Shown: in pieces, positions 4,731-42,852 of the stretch
Numbering within the stretch: position 1 is the first letter of the stretch
Layout of the letters: every line of letters starts with the position of its first letter
Source of the DNA: a virus
Taxonomy: Duplodnaviria > Caudoviricetes
IMG/VR virus record: IMGVR_UViG_3300018089_000001
Span: 1-64,000 of that record
DNA length: 64,000 nt
Strand: one strand, 5' to 3'
Position numbers and translations under genes: made by a program
The notes under the pieces: model-generated
What the model was told of the DNA's origin: nothing
The model's database searches: none
The model's input: the letters and a program-made list of their open reading frames with translations, nothing else

Positions 4731-5750
4731 ATGAGTGAGAAGCAAAAGGCCACGCGCCTCTCCAGCATCGAGGTCGGTCCCGTCGAGGAGCGGTTCTCCA
4801 CCGGTATACCGGGACTCGACCAATGCCTTGCGGAGTCCGATGACGGTCCCCAGGGCCTGCCCTACGGGACCAGCGTGCTGCTGTCGGGCATGCCCGGCGG
4901 CGGCAAGTCGACGGTCGCGACCTACGTCGCGAACGCCCAGACGAGCCGCGAGGCGCTCTACCTGCACGGCGAGGAGCCCGCCCATCGGGTGGTCCGGAGG
5001 TGGAACCGCCTCCAGCTGAAGGGCATGGACCCGTACCTCGCGCCCCTCAAGGACGGGGAGGAGGCCGCGGACATCGTCACCGACGTCGGCGGCGAGCGCG
5101 GCATCGGGGTCACCGTCGTCGACTCCGTCCAGTGCCTCCGGTGGGGCGGCTCGCGGCGCTACCAGGCGCAGTTCGAGGCCGCCGAGTACCTCATGGGCCT
5201 CATCTGCGGGGCCGGCGGGGTCGTCATCCTGGTGTCCCACGTGGACAAGACCGGGAAGTCCCACAAGGGCGCGGCGGAGCTCGCCCACGCGGTGGACATC
5301 CACCTGCACATGGTCAGCAACGCCGCCAGGAACACCCGCACCCTCGAGGTCCGGAAGAACCGCATGGGCCGGGCGGGCTTCCAGGTGCCCGTGAACATCA
5401 CGATCTCTGGCATCAGCGTCGGCACCCCGGCCCCGCTGGCCCCCGGCTCGGGCCTCGTGCAGGCGCGGACCGCCCTGGAGAAGGCCACCGAGGTGGCGTA
5501 CACCCTCCTCATGGCGGGCAAGACGCTCAACGGCTACGACTTCGACGAGGCTGGTCCGGGCGTGAACGGCGGCGTGTGGCGGGCCGGCCTCTCCGTGGCC
5601 GTGAAGCGCATCGAACGGGAGGAGGGACTCACGGTCAAGTCCGAGCGCATCAAGGGACGGATGAGCTGGACCGTCGACCTGCAGCGGAACGACGAGAAGG
5701 CGGGCGAGGAGCCCTCGCCCAACCCGGAGCGTCCCATCGAACTGTACTGA
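4731..5750 (+). CDS. radA: RadA/Sms-like RecA-fold ATPase, lacking Zn-finger and Lon-like domains
   Basis: FSTGIPGLD, GMPGGGKST, LYLHGEE, VVDSVQ, HAVD, KNRMG. Confidence 0.8.
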   Translation: MSEKQKATRLSSIEVGPVEERFSTGIPGLDQCLAESDDGPQGLPYGTSVLLSGMPGGGKSTVATYVANAQTSREALYLHGEEPAHRVVRRWNRLQLKGMDPYLAPLKDGEEAADIVTDVGGERGIGVTVVDSVQCLRWGGSRRYQAQFEAAEYLMGLICGAGGVVILVSHVDKTGKSHKGAAELAHAVDIHLHMVSNAARNTRTLEVRKNRMGRAGFQVPVNITISGISVGTPAPLAPGSGLVQARTALEKATEVAYTLLMAGKTLNGYDFDEAGPGVNGGVWRAGLSVAVKRIEREEGLTVKSERIKGRMSWTVDLQRNDEKAGEEPSPNPERPIELY

Positions 5751-6416: not shown

Positions 6417-6796
6417 CCGATGGGTCTGTGATCGAGGGACGCGGGTGGCGGGCCCGCCGCACGGCCGAGTTCCGTTGCGAGCGGTGCCAGACAGTCAACG
6501 GCTGCGAGGAGCACCGGGTCTTCCGATGCGGGGCCTGCGGGCGCCCCACGTGGTGGTCCGACGGGGCGGCGGATGACTGCCCGGACGACTGCTCGGAGTG
6601 TTGGCACGCCTGGTACCTCCCCCGACAGCAGATCGCCCAGGCGCTCGCGGAGCTGCTGGAGATGATCTGATGGGACTCGTCGGGTCCGTGGCCAAGTTCG
6701 TTCTCAGTCACCTCGCGGGCCCGATGCTATCGGAGGTCGGCGAGGCAGTGGGGAAGGCGGTCGGAAACAGAATCGCAAGAAAGGTAGATCCCGACT

Positions 6797-7294
6797 ATGA
6801 GCCAAGCGAAGAAGACGACAGCGGGTCCGAAGAGGACCCCGGGCAGGGGGACCCCGAAGAGCCCCCCCCCACACCTCCACCAGAAGACGGACCCGCGGGT
6901 CTTCGTCTTCGGATCGAACCGCGTGGGGATCCACGGGGCCGGCGCGGCTGACTACGCCGCCCGCGACCTGGACGCCAAGCACGGCGTGGGGGAGGGCCTC
7001 ACGGGACGTGCATACGCGCTGCCCACCTGCCTCGCTCCGGGCATCCCGCTCACGCTGGACCAGGTCAGGGTCCACGTGCAGCGGTTCATGGCGTTCGCCG
7101 TGACCCGACCGGACCTGCGGTTCTTCGTCTCCGCGATCGGGACGGGGATCGCCGGTTTCAGGGAGGACGAGATCGCCCTCCTGTTCGACGGGGCCCCGCT
7201 CAACTGTGACCTCCCGCCGGGCTGGCGCGAGGCGCACGTCGAGCACCTCGAGGCCGAGGCGTCCCGGTCCGCCTCCCGGACGCCGTCGAGATGA
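6797..7294 (+). CDS. A1S_2505-like phage protein (macro-domain-like)
   Basis: VFVFGSNRVGIHGAGAA...YALPT...FFVSAIGTGIAG. Confidence 0.75.
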   Translation: MSQAKKTTAGPKRTPGRGTPKSPPPHLHQKTDPRVFVFGSNRVGIHGAGAADYAARDLDAKHGVGEGLTGRAYALPTCLAPGIPLTLDQVRVHVQRFMAFAVTRPDLRFFVSAIGTGIAGFREDEIALLFDGAPLNCDLPPGWREAHVEHLEAEASRSASRTPSR

Positions 7295-36090: not shown

Positions 36091-37182
36091 TCACGGGACC
36101 TCGAAGAGTAGGGACCAGCACTCCATCGCGTCACCGAGTCGGCTCCAGTACGCCGCGTGCTCGCCGCCGAACCCCCGGACCGCGGAGGCGACCCTCCGGT
36201 AGCATTCGGTGGGTGTCCGGAGGCCATCGAGTCGCACCGCGTCGATCCTCTCCCAAAACGTTTCGTTCTGTTCGATCCCGTTGGCCTCCTTGCGGAGGTT
36301 CTTGAACGGGTCGGACGCCCGGTCGTGATGGATGTGCGGGGTACCTGTGCTGACGACCCACCCGAGGTGGTCGCAGATCCTCTTTTGGATGATGCCGCAC
36401 CATATGTCCCCCATCCTATCGAACGGAAGGGGCTCGGTGAAGCCCTCGAAGCCCCTCCGCACCGACTTGATCTGCCCCATGAGCAGGTGGTAGCTCAGCG
36501 GGATCGTCTCGCGCCGCCACATCACGTTCATCCCGCAGAAGGGGAAGAATGCCCCGTGCGGGACGATGCGGTTGTCATGGGTGTACGTCTCCGGGACCGG
36601 ATCGACGAGCTGCTGGGGGGCGTCGTAGTCGAGGACGCCCTGCCAGATCCCGTGGTTGACGTGGACCGGCCGCGAGCCGAGGTTCCGGTACGGGACCCCG
36701 CGCGGCCGGACGCTGTTCAGCGTGTTGAACCACCTCGTGCGTTGCAACATCCCCCTATGCAGGAGATCGAGCTGCTCGTAGCCCTTCGCGGGGTAACAGT
36801 CGTCGTCAAGGGTCTGCAGGAAACCGTACCCCTGGCTCCAGGCCCACCAGTAGCCGAAGCTCCTGACGGTGTCCGAGCGGCGGGGAATGATCCACGACCA
36901 AGCGTGCATGTCGATGTCCTCCCAGCAGAAGTGCTGGGCGACGTCGGTCACGGACGGCGTGAAGGTCTTCCGCGGATTGTCCTCGACGAGGATGAGGTCG
37001 ACCCGATCGAGCATCCCGGTGGGTCGCCACTCCGCGACGAACCGCGAGAAGCTCTCCCTCCTGATCGAGGGGACGACGAGGGCCACGCGGTCTCTGTTAG
37101 GACCTGTTAGGCCCTCGTCGTCATCGTCAGGGCCTAGATTCTCTGAGAGATCCTGAGGGAGGAGGGGGTAGTCAGCTTCCAT
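36091..37182 (-). CDS. RGP (GT75)/UDP-arabinopyranose mutase-like protein
   Basis: RSFGY, LDDDCYP, WFNTL, RGVPY, GIW...DYDAPQQL, FCGMN, DIWCG..K.ICDHLG, ASDPFKNLRKE. Confidence 0.85.
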   Translation of the reverse strand: MEADYPLLPQDLSENLGPDDDDEGLTGPNRDRVALVVPSIRRESFSRFVAEWRPTGMLDRVDLILVEDNPRKTFTPSVTDVAQHFCWEDIDMHAWSWIIPRRSDTVRSFGYWWAWSQGYGFLQTLDDDCYPAKGYEQLDLLHRGMLQRTRWFNTLNSVRPRGVPYRNLGSRPVHVNHGIWQGVLDYDAPQQLVDPVPETYTHDNRIVPHGAFFPFCGMNVMWRRETIPLSYHLLMGQIKSVRRGFEGFTEPLPFDRMGDIWCGIIQKRICDHLGWVVSTGTPHIHHDRASDPFKNLRKEANGIEQNETFWERIDAVRLDGLRTPTECYRRVASAVRGFGGEHAAYWSRLGDAMECWSLLFEVP

Positions 37183-38315: not shown

Positions 38316-39863
38316 TCAGATTTCGATGCTGTCGACCGGAATGAAGTAGCTCGCGGCCTGCCTGGCCGAGTGGGCCCACCCCGGCTTCCCGACCACGAAG
38401 CCGTTGGGGTCCTCGAGCTTACGGTGCAGCACCGTGATGTACACGTCGCCCTGGCGGACGGCCGCCCGGACGTGCTCCCAGATGCCAGCGAACGCCGGCG
38501 CCTCGAACTCCATGCCGTCCCGGTCCGTGAGACGGAGCCAGGCCATGGGCCGCCCGTTCTTCTGGGGCCTCTCCTTGATCGACTTGACCAGGAGCGGGGC
38601 TATCAGGACCTCACGGTCCTCGTCCTCGACGAAGGCCGCGTAGCCCGGCTCGCAGAGACCCTCGCCGACGAGGCGGTCGACCTTCGCGTGCCGGTCGTTG
38701 ATGGAGAACGGGGTGCCGCGGAGGTTGAACCCGAGCAGCTCCCGCTCCCGCTCCATCAGCTCGATCGGGTCGTCCTTCGGGCCCCAGATCGCCTCGAGGA
38801 CGGGGGCCACGGCGTCCCGGTTCTTCTTATGGGAGAGCCGCTTGTCGGACCTGAAGGCCTCGTAGCGGAGGCGGAGGGTCGCCACGGACGTCCCGGGGAC
38901 CAGGTCGGTGAAGGCGCCCACGGCCATGAGGGCCTCGACGGACGTCTTCGTCGCCCCCGAGTCGAGCAGGAAGTCGGCGAACGAGGCGTACGGCTGACGG
39001 GCCGCGATCTTCTCGACCGCGGACGGTCCGATCCCCTTCACCGCCGTGAAGGGAAGCCGGATCCCGTTCCCTTCGATCCGAGGGGAGCGGCCCGACAGGT
39101 TCACGTCGACGGGCTTGATCTCGAAGCCCTGGCGGCGGATGTCGTTCACGTACGTCTGCAGGTCGGCCGCCTGGCCCGCGGAGAGCAGCGCGGCGAAGAA
39201 CTCCATCGGATAGTACGTCCGGAGGTACGCGGTCTGCATCGTGACCATGCCGTACGCCTTGGCGTGGGCCCGGTTGAAGCCGTAGGAGCCCCACTTGCCG
39301 AAGGCCTCCCAGAGGTCCTCGGCGGCGGAGCGGGCCATCCCGTTCCCCACGGCGCCCTCGACGACCTTGCCACGTAGCTCGGCGTCCTCCTGCCGGAGGA
39401 ACTCGTCGGACTTGCTCTTGTCCTTCTTGAGGAAGTGCTTGCGGACCCGGTTGGTGTCCTTCCAGGACATCCCGCAGAGCTTCCGGCAGGTCTCCAGGAG
39501 GTGCTCCTGGTAGACGAAGCAGCCGTAGGTGTCCCTCAGGACCTCCTCGAGCAGCGGGTGGTCGTACGTGACGTCCTCAAGGCCGTTCTTCCGCCTCGCG
39601 TACATCTGGTCCATGCCTGAGCCGAGTGGACCCGGACGGTAGAGGGCGCAGACGGCCGCGACGTCGTCGAAGCAGGTCGGCTTGACCTGCTGGAACAGCT
39701 TCATCATGCCCTGGGAGGTGACCGAGAAGATCCCCGTCATGTTCCCCTCCCAGAAGACCGTCCGCATGACCTCCATCGAGTTGAGGTCCATGGTCTTCGG
39801 GTCGATCTCATTGACGACGTCCTGGTAAGAACGTGGGACCCGCTTGATCGATTTGATCCGCAT
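38316..39863 (-). CDS. dnaE: DNA polymerase III alpha, C-terminal fragment (fingers, HhH, OB)
   Basis: ALYRPGPL, TYGCFVYQE, YGFNRAHA.AY, YPMEFFAALL, VDVNLS, VKGIG. Confidence 0.95.
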   Translation of the reverse strand: MRIKSIKRVPRSYQDVVNEIDPKTMDLNSMEVMRTVFWEGNMTGIFSVTSQGMMKLFQQVKPTCFDDVAAVCALYRPGPLGSGMDQMYARRKNGLEDVTYDHPLLEEVLRDTYGCFVYQEHLLETCRKLCGMSWKDTNRVRKHFLKKDKSKSDEFLRQEDAELRGKVVEGAVGNGMARSAAEDLWEAFGKWGSYGFNRAHAKAYGMVTMQTAYLRTYYPMEFFAALLSAGQAADLQTYVNDIRRQGFEIKPVDVNLSGRSPRIEGNGIRLPFTAVKGIGPSAVEKIAARQPYASFADFLLDSGATKTSVEALMAVGAFTDLVPGTSVATLRLRYEAFRSDKRLSHKKNRDAVAPVLEAIWGPKDDPIELMERERELLGFNLRGTPFSINDRHAKVDRLVGEGLCEPGYAAFVEDEDREVLIAPLLVKSIKERPQKNGRPMAWLRLTDRDGMEFEAPAFAGIWEHVRAAVRQGDVYITVLHRKLEDPNGFVVGKPGWAHSARQAASYFIPVDSIEI

Positions 39864-40099
39864 CAGTGACCCAGAGAGAGTGGGTCGAGGCCCAGTGGAA
39901 TCTCCGGCAGCCCCAACGATCTGAGGCTCTCATTGGCGGTGAGGTGCTCAGCGTAAACCTCCCGGTCTATCTCGGAATCCGGATGGAACCCGTGGCCTTG
40001 GTAGCCGCAACCGAAACACCTGAATAGGCAGACGCCGTCGAGAAAACCCCTCCGGTGCTCCGCGGAGCACCGGGGACAGACAAAGTGGATGTCACTCAT
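39863..40099 (-). CDS. small Zn-finger protein between the dnaE halves
   Basis: MSDIHFVCPRC...CFGCG; overlaps endonuclease stop and is TGATG-coupled to dnaE-C. Confidence 0.65.
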   Translation of the reverse strand: MSDIHFVCPRCSAEHRRGFLDGVCLFRCFGCGYQGHGFHPDSEIDREVYAEHLTANESLRSLGLPEIPLGLDPLSLGH

Positions 40100-40862
40100 A
40101 CGCGAAACGTCTCCCCCTCGTTGTTCCAGAGACACGGGTGCCACGGGCGCAGGCGGCGATGGCCGCCTCGCTGATATCATAATGCTGACTGGCGAGACGG
40201 ACGGATTCAAAGACAAGGCCATCGTCGAGGCACTTGACACGCTTGACCTTGGAGAGGCGGATGCGATCGCGATGTTCCTGCGTGATCACGCGATTGCTGA
40301 TCCTCTCTTTCGTCTCCTCGGAGTGCTTCTTCCCGTAGAAGGGGTTCTTAGAACCGGACTGGTCGCCCTTCTTCTTGCGGGTCTGTCGTTTTGGAGGGAC
40401 GACGATATCGAGGCTAGTCTTCGCGGTGGACGGATCGGGAGCATCATCAGGGGTTCGCTCGAGAAAACGACGTAGCTGTGATTCACGCATTCTCGCTCGG
40501 GTCTCATCTGAGAGCTTATGGCCGAGCAGTCCGCCGCCTCCATCGGTACAGTTCAAGAGTGCGCATCCCTCGCTTCTCTTTAAGCGAATCCAACGCACCT
40601 CCGCGTCATTCAAGAGGGAATTCGCGAGTTCCCAGTCTTCAGACTGTCCGAGGTTTTCGAGCGTCACCACCCGAGGACTCATTCCGAGTCCTTTCAACTT
40701 TCGAATCCAACAGTAAACAGGATAGTGTGCTTCTGCAACTCTCTTGTTCTGCAGATGCCTGTATGGGCGAACTAAGCCGCTCGCAGATCGTCCGACATAT
40801 CGAACTTCATCGGTTCGCGGATCCACCAGCCCGTATATCAGAAGATTCCAGAATTTCGTCAT
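40092..40862 (-). CDS. GIY-YIG homing endonuclease with NUMOD3-type repeats
   Basis: IYGLVDPR..VRYVGRS; LLNCTDGG.G; NPFYGKKHSEETKERIS; lower GC. Confidence 0.9.
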   Translation of the reverse strand: MTKFWNLLIYGLVDPRTDEVRYVGRSASGLVRPYRHLQNKRVAEAHYPVYCWIRKLKGLGMSPRVVTLENLGQSEDWELANSLLNDAEVRWIRLKRSEGCALLNCTDGGGGLLGHKLSDETRARMRESQLRRFLERTPDDAPDPSTAKTSLDIVVPPKRQTRKKKGDQSGSKNPFYGKKHSEETKERISNRVITQEHRDRIRLSKVKRVKCLDDGLVFESVRLASQHYDISEAAIAACARGTRVSGTTRGRRFAYE

Positions 40863-42852
40863 CTTCAATGAGCTGGTCGACTCTGATCGATCCTCGCTGT
40901 GTTTGCACTCGCTCATATGACAAAAACTTTCGGATTGAACCGTCCTCCATCTCCAGTTCGATCAATGGATGAGTTGCGGCGATCAGTTTGCAGGCTTGAG
41001 AGATGACCTCGAGCGAGGCAAGCGAAAGTATGTCAAACTTCACCAGCCCCATGTTGGAGGCCGACTTGTTCACGATCCCGTCGGTGAACGAGGCCTGGAC
41101 GACCCCCTTGGAGCGGAACACCGACGTCTCGGAGGGCAGGTCGTCGCCGATGACCACGCCCGAGGCGTGGCGCCCGACGTGGTGCTCCCGCCCGTACAGG
41201 CTCCGGACCGCACGCTCCAGCTGGGGGTACTGACGCATGAACGAGTTGAACGTCGGACTGAGGCGGTAGATGTCGTCGAGCTTGATGACGATGGCCGAGC
41301 GGGTCACCCCCTCGTCCTCGCTGTACAGGGCCCGCATCTCCCGCTCGATCTGCGCGTTGACGCGGTTGCAGAGGTTGTGGTCGATGTCGTGGACCCGGCA
41401 GAGGTCCTTCAGGAGGCCCTTGATCTGGTTGGTCCCGTACGTGCTGATGCAGGCGACGTTGTCCTCGCCGAAGTCGCGGCGGAGGATGTCCTTGACCCGG
41501 TCCACGTCCTGGAAGTCGAGGTCGATGTCCGGGGTCTCGACGCGGTCGATGTTGATGAACCGCTCGAACATCAGGTTGTGCTCGATCGGGTCGATGTTCG
41601 TGATCCCGGTGAGGTAGCAGATCAGGCTGCCGGCCGCCGATCCGCGGCCGGGACCGATGAGCATCTCCTTCCGCGCCGCGTCGCAGATGTTCCGGACGAC
41701 GAGGAAGTAGTTGGCGAGCCCCTTCTCCCGGATGACGCCCAGCTCGTAGCTCAGACGCTGGACGTACCGGTCGTCCCGCTCCAGCCCGCGGGACCTCAGT
41801 CCCACGGCCGCGGACCGCATGAGCTCCCTGAACGTGTCCGCGTACGGCAACGACGGGAGCCGCATCCGCGTGTCGGGCTCGAACTGCTCGACCAAGGAGT
41901 CCGCCATGAGCGTGTTATCGAACGCCTGGGCAAGGACGTCCTCCGGAACCTCGGGGTTGTTCAGGCGGAAGCTCTCCCACAGTTCGTCGGCCGACTTGAC
42001 GAAGAGGGAGCGCACGTCGAACCTATAGTCGGGCGGCAGGTTCCCGAGAGTGAGGCCCCCAGCCTTACCCCGATGCGTCAGGAGGAGGTGGAGGATCTGC
42101 TGCGACTGCCAGTCCGCGGGGTCCACATAGTGGCTGTCTTGCGTGACAAGGAGTGGGATCTTCGTCTCGTCGTGGATCTTAATGAGGGCGGAATTCAGTT
42201 CGGCTTGGTACGGCGCCGCGTTGGTCTGCAGCTCAAGGAAAAACCGACCCTGAAAGATCTCGGAGTACTCTTGAGCTAGCTTGACGACTTCATCCCATTC
42301 GCACTCGCCGCGTTTGAACAGCGAATAGCGAGCGCTGATGACACCGCCCATGCATGCTGATGAGGCGACTAGGCCCCTGCTGAGCTCAGCGAGCATCTCC
42401 TTGTCAAGGCGCGGCTTTTGGAAGTAGCCTTCCTTGTGGGCTCGGTACTGGAGCCGATAAAGGTTCGCCAGACCCTCCCTGCTTTGAGCCACCAAGACGA
42501 GATGGCCCTTCCGATAGAGGACCTTCCGCTTCGTCTTATCGAGGGCAGCGCGGTCAAGGTCGAACTCGACGTCCTCGACCGCGGCTTTCTTCTCAAGTGC
42601 CAGCTGCTCCTTGAGGGCTCGCCAGTCCTTGAGGCTATCGATGACGTAGCTCTCCATTCCGAGGAGAGCCCTCACGCCCTGCTTCTTGGCCTCGAGGAAA
42701 GTCCGTGCGTGCGAGTGGCAATGCCCGTGATTCGTGATCGCGAAGGACTTGAGTCCCTTGTCCTTCGCCGCCTTGACAAGCTCTTCAGGAGAACAGACGC
42801 CATCCTGAAAGCTGAAGGCATCGTGCGTATGCAGACTTGCCATCATCCTCAT
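40807..42852 (-). CDS. dnaE: DNA polymerase III alpha, N-terminal fragment (PHP, palm) with intein-like tail
   Basis: HTHDAFSFQDG, ITNHG, GPGRGSAAGS, FERF, PDIDLDF, RHASGV, KFDIL. Confidence 0.95.
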   Translation of the reverse strand: MRMMASLHTHDAFSFQDGVCSPEELVKAAKDKGLKSFAITNHGHCHSHARTFLEAKKQGVRALLGMESYVIDSLKDWRALKEQLALEKKAAVEDVEFDLDRAALDKTKRKVLYRKGHLVLVAQSREGLANLYRLQYRAHKEGYFQKPRLDKEMLAELSRGLVASSACMGGVISARYSLFKRGECEWDEVVKLAQEYSEIFQGRFFLELQTNAAPYQAELNSALIKIHDETKIPLLVTQDSHYVDPADWQSQQILHLLLTHRGKAGGLTLGNLPPDYRFDVRSLFVKSADELWESFRLNNPEVPEDVLAQAFDNTLMADSLVEQFEPDTRMRLPSLPYADTFRELMRSAAVGLRSRGLERDDRYVQRLSYELGVIREKGLANYFLVVRNICDAARKEMLIGPGRGSAAGSLICYLTGITNIDPIEHNLMFERFINIDRVETPDIDLDFQDVDRVKDILRRDFGEDNVACISTYGTNQIKGLLKDLCRVHDIDHNLCNRVNAQIEREMRALYSEDEGVTRSAIVIKLDDIYRLSPTFNSFMRQYPQLERAVRSLYGREHHVGRHASGVVIGDDLPSETSVFRSKGVVQASFTDGIVNKSASNMGLVKFDILSLASLEVISQACKLIAATHPLIELEMEDGSIRKFLSYERVQTQRGSIRVDQLIEDDEILESSDIRAGGSANR

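Follow-up and report, generated by a model that had tools for sequence, protein, structure and literature searches.

A split dnaE gene in a peat phage

The dnaE gene of a large soil (peat) phage is broken into two open reading frames that carry short extensions at the broken ends, which raises the question of what these extensions are and how two separate halves can yield a polymerase. We analysed a window of 64,000 nucleotides (positions 1 to 64,000 of IMG/VR record IMGVR_UViG_3300018089_000001) from the 185-kb, 91%-complete genome of this phage. The PHP, palm, finger and HhH domains of DnaE (Pol III alpha) are encoded in order over both ORFs. The N-fragment comprises the PHP domain, the palm/NTPase domain with the catalytic Asp strand (KFDIL) and the first finger helix, followed by an acidic tail; the C-fragment starts with a basic head and comprises the remaining finger domain, the HhH domain and the C-terminal part. 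DnaE is encoded once in the genome, by the split copy, and PolB is absent from the 91%-complete sequence, so the split enzyme must work. The features of the locus are as follows:

40807..42852, minus strand: dnaE N-fragment ORF, 681 aa, with PHP and DNA_pol3_alpha domains
40849..40965, minus strand: acidic tail, the conserved 39 aa, recognised by homology to the N-intein second half, by selection and by the predicted fold of a relative (L003)
40807..40848, minus strand: variable last 13 codons and stop of the N-fragment, delimited by alignment with relatives
40092..40862, minus strand: free-standing gene of a putative homing endonuclease, 256 aa from the ATG at 40862
39863..40099, minus strand: zinc-ribbon ORF, 78 aa, CxxC...CxxC, recognised from the ORF and its sequence
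39834..39863, minus strand: basic head MRIKSIKRVP, 10 aa, matching the first beta-strand of C-inteins
38316..39863, minus strand: dnaE C-fragment ORF, 515 aa, with DNA_pol3_finger from profile position 17 and HHH_6

The endonuclease gene and the small zinc-ribbon ORF between the dnaE halves give the locus the fractured-gene layout of Dassa et al. 2009. Read from its ATG at 40862, the endonuclease gene overlaps the end of the N-fragment by 56 nt, as it does in the relative L002; its longest ORF begins at 40916. The last 13 codons of the N-fragment are shared, in another frame, with the beginning of the endonuclease gene. These codons vary among relatives, and the conserved 39 aa precede this overlap. 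The zinc-ribbon ORF overlaps the endonuclease stop by 8 nt at its start and the ATG of the C-fragment by 1 nt at its stop. It is not present in the relatives, and L002 has unrelated DNA in its place. No second copy of the tail was found in the phage's own genome.

A LIY...(11 aa)...YVG motif is visible near the N-terminus of the endonuclease, where Pfam GIY-YIG is undetected even at E 10. The protein matches NUMOD3 (E 6.7e-10), the I-TevI DNA-binding domain (PDB 1i3j, E 5.5e-5) and a PHROG homing endonuclease family (E 6e-14), and a split PolA gene (L008) has a Pfam-positive GIY-YIG at the homologous cassette position. This suggests a putative homing endonuclease of the GIY-YIG type.

The native DnaE sequence breaks off at ...KLIAATHP (about 40966) and resumes at RSYQDV in the C-fragment, with none of it missing and none duplicated. 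More than 60 unsplit homologues (1131-1150 aa) run directly from ...LIAARTG into RTYEDV...EIDPK. Since these relatives are continuous across the break, tail and head are a precise insert and not a normal loop; they lengthen the two proteins in frame, at the C- and N-terminus respectively, and unsplit alleles lack them, as in endonuclease-borne tail elements. Phage relatives in GenBank are at most 33% identical and all unsplit at the break site, and a scan of IMG/VR with the N-fragment recovered a single distant relative, also unsplit. No longer DnaE homologue with an intact intein at the break site was found in a dedicated search, a result of little weight; the intein of four longer homologues (P0230-P0233) is of the HNH type and sits at the YGFN site. 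Duplicated native DnaE was also considered as the source of the tail, on the strength of tblastn alignments reaching residue 645, and was ruled out by aligning close unsplit homologues.

A preliminary description of this locus had placed the split, the tail and the head correctly to the base, and had rightly held that the break is not at the cyanobacterial DnaE intein site, whose equivalent (YGFNRAH) is intact in the C-fragment. It made no mention of the endonuclease gene and the zinc-ribbon ORF between the halves.

Intein homology of the tail and the head

Neither the tail nor the head alone matched the Pfam intein and Hint models at E<=10, and a phmmer search of the PDB with the single tail returned nothing meaningful; only a profile built from six related tails was sensitive enough. 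Among PDB sequences, this profile matched residues 62-104 of the NrdJ-1 split intein (E 7.4e-5). Against 1.84e9 proteins it gave 282 matches at E<=1e-3, many Pfam-verified inteins among them, which it matched over Intein_splicing positions ~41-93 and over its full length with E values down to 7e-12. By BLASTP, the tail is 41% identical over 44 aa (E 8e-11) to the N-intein of UvsW from Salmonella phage S16, a cultured example of a fractured gene (gp114 / gp114.1 / gp115). The homology always falls in the second half of the N-intein (the block B region). The head motif corresponds to the first strand of the C-intein and occupies the same position in contiguous mini-inteins (16.9 and 10.9 bits, where the 99th percentile of the controls is 8.4); the head also matches the S16 C-intein (E 6e-4). 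The best named cluster in a feature search of the ESM Atlas was 'Hom_end-associated Hint' (score 0.85), which serves as a lead only. At the level of sequence, this homology indicates that tail and head descend from a split intein of the 'fractured-gene' type.

Loss of the splicing residues

We compared seven split loci for the residues that splicing requires. The start of the tail has no conserved Cys/Ser/Thr in any of them, and its first residue is L, Q, S, G, D or E across six loci. The ~60-aa N-lobe that bears block A is absent. The TxxH motif of block B is missing from all seven, the aligned positions reading LSYE in this phage and LPYE, VPYE, SGRR or ELNQ elsewhere; among the canonical intein matches the T of this motif is conserved in 97% and the H in 100%. 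Blocks F/G are likewise lacking, with no terminal HN and no C/S/T at the +1 position in the seven loci: the heads are 10-12 aa long, end in P, S, I or Q and are followed by the native Arg (Thr in one). The complete two-lobe Hint fold is not encoded here, the other lobe having no counterpart in either ORF, and the extensions are not the functional split-intein halves of fractured genes. Since every splicing residue and the other lobe are gone, no peptide bond can form, and with only ~39 + 10 aa left, devoid of catalytic residues, the product must remain two chains. The preliminary description had likened the tail to the second lobe of split-intein N-halves and the head to the first strand of IntC, and had judged the splicing residues to be missing; all three points agree with our searches.

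Selection and mobility

The tail is under purifying selection as a protein (pN 0.11-0.25 vs pS 0.63-0.92), and its synonymous sites are saturated. Tail and head persist where the endonuclease does not: it is absent from L003, where the halves are separated by a 57-nt gap with its own ribosome-binding site (AGGAG) and a GTG start, truncated in L007 and replaced in L005. Split forms occur at no fewer than four positions in the DnaE tree, and the AU test rejects a single clade (p 1e-84). This placement of the split forms shows that the cassette is mobile; it is also more diverged than the flanking sequence. Retention of the tails after decay or loss of the endonuclease, together with several independent insertions at the same site, places the dnaE cassette alongside the MobE/NrdA and MobA/Topo2L elements.

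About 30 similar truncated tails end the N-fragments of UvsW, PolA, PolB, DnaB-like and RNA ligase genes. The occurrence of the same tail type on unrelated host proteins points to a role that does not depend on the host protein, pairing with the head being one candidate.

Predicted fold and proposed docking of the halves

The opposite charges of the two extensions are conserved, the net charge being -4 to -7 for the tail and +3 to +5 for the head. We modelled the relative L003 with AF2, reading through its two TGA stops and joining the halves via translated intergenic codons. Recoding of TGA in L003 was considered separately and rejected, as TGA ends 6/8 neighbouring genes. The model is of moderate confidence (tail pLDDT 70-82, mean pLDDT 64). 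Over tail and head it aligns only to residues 59-127 of NrdJ-1 (Z 6.7) and to residues 52-114 of Npu DnaE (Z 6.0), scores within the range where common arrangements also occur. AF2 may also have been pulled toward a familiar fold. An exhaustive structure search of 48,161 chains returned Hint folds at all ranks from 1 to 14 (Z 5-8), with Z 2.6 at rank 50. Prediction of a complex between the tail alignment and the first 36 residues of the C-fragments, run without controls, scored 0.31 (mark 0.32), which speaks neither for nor against docking.

We consider it probable that a mobile cassette with degenerate split-intein ends split dnaE, and that tail and head dock the two halves non-covalently into a working polymerase. 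The anatomy of the locus, the intein homology, the loss of the catalytic residues, the selection on the tail, the mobility of the cassette and its persistence without the endonuclease are established, whereas the docking step is predicted. The cassette invaded dnaE at a surface loop just past the first finger helix, bringing, in gene order, the 39-aa acidic extension of the upstream half, the putative GIY-YIG-type endonuclease gene with the zinc-ribbon passenger ORF, and the 10-aa basic extension of the downstream half. The extensions keep one of the two pseudo-symmetric Hint lobes, namely the N-intein second half and the C-intein first strand, the two long strands of opposite charge through which split inteins associate. 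Once the halves have been translated independently, the head strand would insert between the tail strands, and the small beta-sheet domain so formed would keep the N- and C-fragments in register, with palm (N) and fingers (C) rebuilding one active, non-covalent polymerase. We infer the binding of tail and head from the selection on the tail, its retention without the endonuclease, the charge complementarity and the predicted fold. A hydrophobic face may, however, be left exposed where only one half of the Hint fold is present. The interpretation in the preliminary description, a trimmed intein acting as a clasp, stands as regards homology and anatomy, but missed the mobile endonuclease cassette and the spread of the module on other split genes.

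Alternative explanations

A smaller but real probability goes to the extensions being intein leftovers that have no docking role, the halves associating by their large native interface and the extensions being kept for another reason, such as folding or solubility of the new termini, positioning for activity or for contact with a partner as in Aeh1 NrdA, or constraints from endonuclease overlap or translational coupling. The halves of Aeh1 NrdA still bound each other after tail deletion (PMC3045599), and since tails are not needed for binding there, the native DnaE interface may suffice here and the tail may act otherwise. Native contacts do exist, because the split lies inside the finger domain with its first helix on the N-fragment, and the last 13 tail codons do overlap the endonuclease start. 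However, the 39 aa upstream of that overlap are conserved at the protein level while synonymous sites are saturated, and L003 retains them without any endonuclease gene to overlap. The recurrence of the tail type on unrelated host proteins and the conserved opposite charges of tail and head also speak against leftovers.

It is very improbable that the extensions still work as a highly atypical split intein and trans-splice by a non-canonical mechanism. Homology to split inteins would suit this reading, and non-canonical inteins are known (class 3, Ala1 and cysteine-less), but the tail start has no conserved nucleophile, TxxH, blocks F/G and a terminal Asn are absent, the +1 residue is Arg or Thr, and only ~50 residues are left of a ~130-residue fold, the lobe bearing both splice junctions being the missing one. 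Equally hard to credit is an arbitrary tail sequence, acquired with the endonuclease, that merely looks like an intein. An ExExDG motif does occur in short acidic, beta-rich peptides of unrelated proteins (there were cupin and repeat-protein matches), but full-length matches to verified inteins among 1.84e9 proteins, the pairwise match to S16, a head motif at the homologous position and top structural matches that are Hint folds only all speak against chance.

Joining at the level of RNA or translation, by a group I intron with its endonuclease or by ribosomal bypass as in T4 gene 60, is the least probable of all: group I introns often host GIY-YIG genes and the L003 halves share a frame 57 nt apart, but no Rfam intron model or other RNA matched between the halves (E-value mode, 39300-41500, no family even at E 10 except a chance miRNA match), selection on the tail acts at the protein level, and both halves carry a stop and a start of their own. 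In L003 an AGGAG box precedes the GTG, an intron core would not fit into 57 nt, and TGA is a normal stop. The 950-nt gap in another frame in this phage cannot be bypassed. Among sequencing runs, only the probable source DNA run, a peat metagenome, matched, and no RNA run was listed.

Implications

We see an even chance that the tail-head pair belongs to a separate subfamily of 'half-Hint' modules, possibly of single origin. Its members would be two-piece beta domains that are autonomous, non-catalytic and held together by a charge zipper, and homing-endonuclease cassettes would carry them. If so, such cassettes could interrupt any essential gene at a surface loop while the enzyme would still work as two chains, and the module would be spread over DnaE, PolA, PolB, UvsW, a DnaB-like helicase, RNA ligase and other phage genes. 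It would represent a third way for selfish elements to live inside genes, one that needs no splicing, and a state in which the life cycle of an intein naturally ends. Should half a Hint fold be stable as a two-piece domain, this would matter for the proposal that the Hint fold arose by duplication and for split-intein association, as a capture step without collapse and chemistry. The use as a very small heterodimer tag, raised in the preliminary description, would be a reasonable corollary: a natural, charge-complementary pair of ~39 + 10 residues (~50 in all) with many diverged alleles would supply small orthogonal heterodimerisation tags that leave no covalent scar and require no cysteine. 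For annotation, polymerase and helicase N- and C-fragments of this kind in phage metagenomes should not be labelled as pseudogenes.

Comparison with known systems

The closest relatives by sequence are the fractured genes with the split inteins NrdJ-1, gp41-1 and IMPDH-1, whose long strands are charged (Dassa et al. 2009, PMC2677866). They share with dnaE a phage replication gene in two ORFs, a free-standing endonuclease gene between them, which is GIY-YIG or Vsr-like in those systems and putatively of the GIY-YIG type in dnaE, an upstream half ending in an acidic N-intein end and a downstream half starting with a basic strand, and they are directly homologous in sequence. Unlike the dnaE extensions, those inteins are 88-105 + 33-54 aa long, have Cys1, TxxH and a terminal Asn followed by Cys/Ser, and splice. 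The cyanobacterial DnaE split intein (Ssp/Npu) resides in the same host enzyme and uses the same principle of charged strand pairing, but its insertion site is different (Y|CFNKSH, a motif intact in the phage), it is catalytically complete, its halves are encoded far apart and its product is covalent.

Endonuclease-borne tails are already published for Aeh1 NrdA and T4 MobA; Hint-derived tails were not found in the published literature. T4 MobA in the topoisomerase genes 39/60 (Manning & Atkins, bioRxiv 10.1101/2022.08.31.505936) is likewise a mobile element with an endonuclease and conserved C- and N-terminal extensions, inserted independently at the same site in several clades, and its endonuclease has been lost or replaced step by step, with the split and the tails kept in every case. 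The MobA tails, however, are ~44 aa each, are not reported to be Hint-like and come with a 50-nt bypass cassette that dnaE lacks.

The nrdA-a / mobE / nrdA-b locus of Aeh1 (Crona et al. 2011, PMC3045599) is also an essential enzyme split by a homing endonuclease, with oppositely charged C- and N-terminal tails derived from the element. These tails are essential for activity of the split enzyme: they are not needed for binding between the halves, but for higher-order (dimer-of-heterodimer) assembly and activity (PMC3045599). Their charges are reversed relative to dnaE (basic C-tail, acidic N-tail), the endonuclease is of the HNH type, and there is no demonstrable intein similarity; a degenerate-intein origin was a speculation of Crona et al. 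(PMC3045599). The dnaE tails, in contrast, can be traced to the Hint fold by statistics and structure, and thereby link two phenomena known separately, the trans-splicing split inteins of fractured genes and non-splicing endonuclease-borne tails.

Organization of the split dnaE locus

Four chained ORFs on the minus strand of the window encode DnaE in two pieces, with extensions at both broken ends that we call the tail and the head:

40807-42852, minus: dnaE N-fragment, 681 aa, with PHP and DNA_pol3_alpha domains
40849-40965, minus: tail, a conserved acidic C-terminal extension of the N-fragment (39 aa), followed by 13 variable residues
40862 (ATG, most likely start) to 40092, minus: homing endonuclease gene, between the dnaE halves
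39863-40099, minus: zinc-ribbon ORF, 78 aa
39834-39863, minus: head, the basic N-terminal extension of the C-fragment
38316-39863, minus: dnaE C-fragment, 515 aa, with DNA_pol3_finger from profile position 17, plus HHH_6

The start of the endonuclease gene overlaps the end of the N-fragment by 56 nt, and the next two junctions (endonuclease/zinc-ribbon ORF and zinc-ribbon ORF/C-fragment) overlap by 8 nt and 1 nt. The endonuclease matches NUMOD3 (E 6.7e-10), the PHROG 'homing endonuclease' (E 6e-14) and, in the PDB, the DNA-binding domain of I-TevI (E 5.5e-5); its N-terminus shows a GIY...YVG motif, but the Pfam GIY-YIG model gives no match. Family-model searches assigned the zinc-ribbon ORF to no family. 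It is translationally chained between the endonuclease gene and the C-fragment and is without counterpart in relatives; in the related locus L002 this place is taken by unrelated DNA that encodes a different ORF of 69 aa. Genes for an RGP (PF03214) and a TnsA-like protein lie downstream of dnaE (window 36091-37182) and are kept in all related contigs (L002, L005 and L007).

Searching with the C-terminal 122 residues of the N-fragment recovered more than 60 unsplit homologues (1131-1150 aa), which reach 96% identity immediately before the break, and three more split N-fragments. The unsplit proteins join ...LIAARTG directly to RTYEDV..EIDPK. The window's N-fragment runs from ...LIAATHP into 52 additional residues, and its C-fragment places ten (MRIKSIKRVP) ahead of RSYQDV..EIDPK; relative to the unsplit homologues, no native DnaE sequence is lost or duplicated at the break. 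Judged by this alignment, the tail and head are a precise insert in DnaE. The preliminary description had taken them for intein-derived additions, and they are indeed not an ordinary loop of uninterrupted homologues, since the unsplit proteins run straight across the break. The break lies one helix past the strand bearing the third catalytic Asp (KFDIL); one chain holds the palm residues, and the other holds the finger residues together with an intact YGFNRAH.

Conservation of the tail and head among split loci

In total, the searches yielded seven split dnaE loci. The tail is present in every one of them, and the head wherever the downstream gene is present.

Content between the dnaE halves in the seven split loci
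Window: endonuclease and zinc-ribbon ORF
L002: same endonuclease type and a different small ORF
L004: start of an endonuclease after the N-half, then contig end
Contig of P0080: endonuclease
L007: truncated endonuclease remnant only
L005: two unrelated ORFs
L003: no gene, 57 nt containing an AGGAG box and a GTG start codon

The tails share nine invariant positions. Comparison of the four tails without gaps gives a pN of 0.11-0.25 and a saturated pS of 0.63-0.92, which shows that selection acts on the tail as protein. Five of six dnaE tails carry a net charge of -4 to -7 (L004: -1), and the heads carry +3 to +5. None of the junction residues needed for splicing is conserved among the compared loci, and splicing of the halves is chemically excluded. 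Joining at the RNA level is also excluded; Rfam contains no match to an intron in 39300-41500, even at E 10. The L003 halves lie in the same frame with two TGA codons between them, and TGA is a genuine stop in L003, terminating six of eight neighbouring genes. The L003 junction (5414-5476) resembles a clean endonuclease excision, one step short of becoming a single ORF again, with a half-Hint domain inside it.

Relationship of the tail and head to inteins

The tail is recognised neither by Pfam nor by a single-sequence PDB search. A profile built from six tails (A1) retrieved from the PDB, as its top match, the NrdJ-1 split intein (8ubs_A residues 62-104, E 7.4e-5); the second match (E 0.023) covered 12 residues. 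Against 1.84e9 representative proteins the profile gave 282 matches at E<=1e-3, and 116 of the 149 fetched had one full-length match. These single-match proteins are mostly canonical inteins, in which a Cys-led block A precedes the match and TxxH falls inside it; in P0084, P0088, P0102 and P0204, Pfam Intein_splicing or Hint covers the matched stretch. Two contiguous mini-inteins carry the head motif directly after the tail match, just ahead of block F, with scores of 16.9 and 10.9 bits (controls: mean 0, SD 3.9). The end of the UvsW N-intein of Salmonella phage S16 is 41% identical to the window tail over 44 aa (E 8e-11), and the start of its C-intein (MRLKSIKEI...) matches the head (E 6e-4). 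In split inteins the two longest antiparallel strands are oppositely charged and mediate association, and the N-part of NrdJ-1 is negative and its C-part positive (Dassa et al., PMC2677866). The strands surviving in the tail and head are these two association strands.

The S16 UvsW locus (NC_020416.1, 2399-5125) is itself a canonical fractured gene in a cultured T4-like phage: gp114 has a full N-intein at its end (Cys1, TGNH), gp114.1, annotated as hypothetical, looks like a free-standing endonuclease, and gp115 opens with a full C-intein whose last residues are AHN|C. The UvsW pieces are annotated only as 'DNA helicase'.

For fold prediction, the L003 halves were translated through to give a chain of tail, 19 residues, head and 26 native residues. 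AF2 with alignment A4 returned a mean pLDDT of 64 (70-82 in the tail); it predicts that the tail forms five short strands and the head a strand of 11 residues. Almost all of the top ~45 Foldseek matches in the PDB were inteins or other Hint domains (best E 9e-3), and in an exhaustive alignment to 48,161 chains ranks 1-14 were all Hint folds (Z 4.9-7.7; rank 50, Z 2.6). VIA-align placed model residues 1-82 on NrdJ-1 59-127 (Z 6.7, 2.7 Å, 65 residues, 31% identity), and the model on Npu DnaE intein 52-114 (Z 6.0) and gp41-1 42-104 (Z 7.0). In this model of moderate confidence, made from a relative's protein with an artificial linker of translated intergenic codons, the predicted match takes in the N-intein's second half and the first strand(s) of the C-intein.

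Mobility of the cassette

A tree built from the N-terminal ~625 residues of 73 homologues includes five split forms, which require at least four changes; branches with SH-aLRT >= 95 force this minimum. The nearest relatives of each are unsplit, and a single split clade is rejected by the AU test (p 1e-84). Between the window and L002, the dnaE flanks adjoining the cassette share 82-96% DNA identity, the tail and endonuclease only 62-78%, and the stretch with the zinc-ribbon ORF is unrelated.

Among close DnaE homologues, P0057 (620 aa) has a real intein after GVFQ and an endonuclease-like domain at its end, which makes it a possible further fractured form; P0230-P0233 (1402-1421 aa) have real inteins at YGFN with an HNH-type insert. 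The window's dnaE clade is a hotspot for selfish elements.

Truncated tails in other genes

About 30 of the single-match proteins resemble the window tail, having neither TxxH nor the N-lobe and ending 0-21 residues after the match. Pfam, run on 28 of them, detects no intein family. The host domains it identifies are DEAD/ResIII/UvsW_N (6), DNA_pol3_alpha, RNA_lig_T4_1, DNA_pol_A and DnaB (2 each) and DNA_pol_B (1). In a tree of the ~40-residue stretch with block B columns removed (36 columns, poor resolution), such tails require 8 changes, compared with 32.7 under shuffled labels (0/500 shuffles as low), which indicates a distinct subgroup with few origins. A split PolA locus (L008) has the order tail, Pfam-positive GIY-YIG gene, two small ORFs, and a C-fragment starting MKLKKISP.

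L008 (JGI 3300042599) carries a second tail-like motif (VEVEQDGKKF ... DLKADDEI) at the end of a 76-aa ORF (6736-6966), located after the GIY-YIG gene and before the PolA C-fragment; this may be an orphan tail or may be left over from a second cassette. The unsplit ribonucleotide reductase P0162 (1340 aa) has a contiguous tail-like and head-like segment (residues ~1002-1055) in the loop between the EIALPT and EIAVCN motifs, about where mobE splits Aeh1 NrdA; this may be a secondarily fused half-Hint module, and a normal intein is also present upstream. Six DnaB-like/P-loop N-fragments (P0093, P0126, P0141, P0211, P0223 and P0228), with a Cys directly after the Walker A GK, ~16 residues and then the tail, may be intermediates whose N-lobe is strongly shortened. 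P0081, P0082, P0085-P0087 and others, which are 480-820 aa long, contain 7-9 DIDVQFEDG-like repeats that match the first ~20 tail positions only; they are either an unrelated repeat family or a beta-hairpin repeat.

Function of the tail and head

The phage genome (185,486 bp, 91% complete) encodes one DnaE, no PolB and a single copy of the tail. Its PolA-like match is sub-threshold only and lies just outside the window: at G000:C1:65171-65332 (minus), a 433-aa open frame weakly matches the last 55 DNA_pol_A positions (17.8 bits, under the cut-off). A split sole replicase kept across diverged lineages must be functional. The best reading, we infer, is that the tail and head probably act as a non-covalent clasp, because splicing and RNA joining are excluded and the extensions are selected, oppositely charged and match the association strands of split inteins. 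The main rival is that the extensions have a role other than keeping the two halves together. The tails of Aeh1 NrdA are such a case: activity requires them, and heterodimer formation does not (PMC3045599).

Comparison with known systems

Fractured genes with active split inteins have been described (PMC2677866), and so have tails that come with an endonuclease element and rescue the enzyme it splits (PMC3045599; bioRxiv 10.1101/2022.08.31.505936). For such tails Crona et al. raised a degenerate-intein origin as speculation, with no similarity to show (PMC3045599). Our full-text literature search on degenerate, inactive and remnant inteins yielded no description of a natural non-catalytic half-intein, which does not prove that none exists. 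The MobA element has inserted independently at one site, with its endonuclease lost or replaced and its tails always retained (bioRxiv 10.1101/2022.08.31.505936); the dnaE cassette follows the same pattern. The intein origin of the dnaE extensions can be traced, and the module appears to be general.
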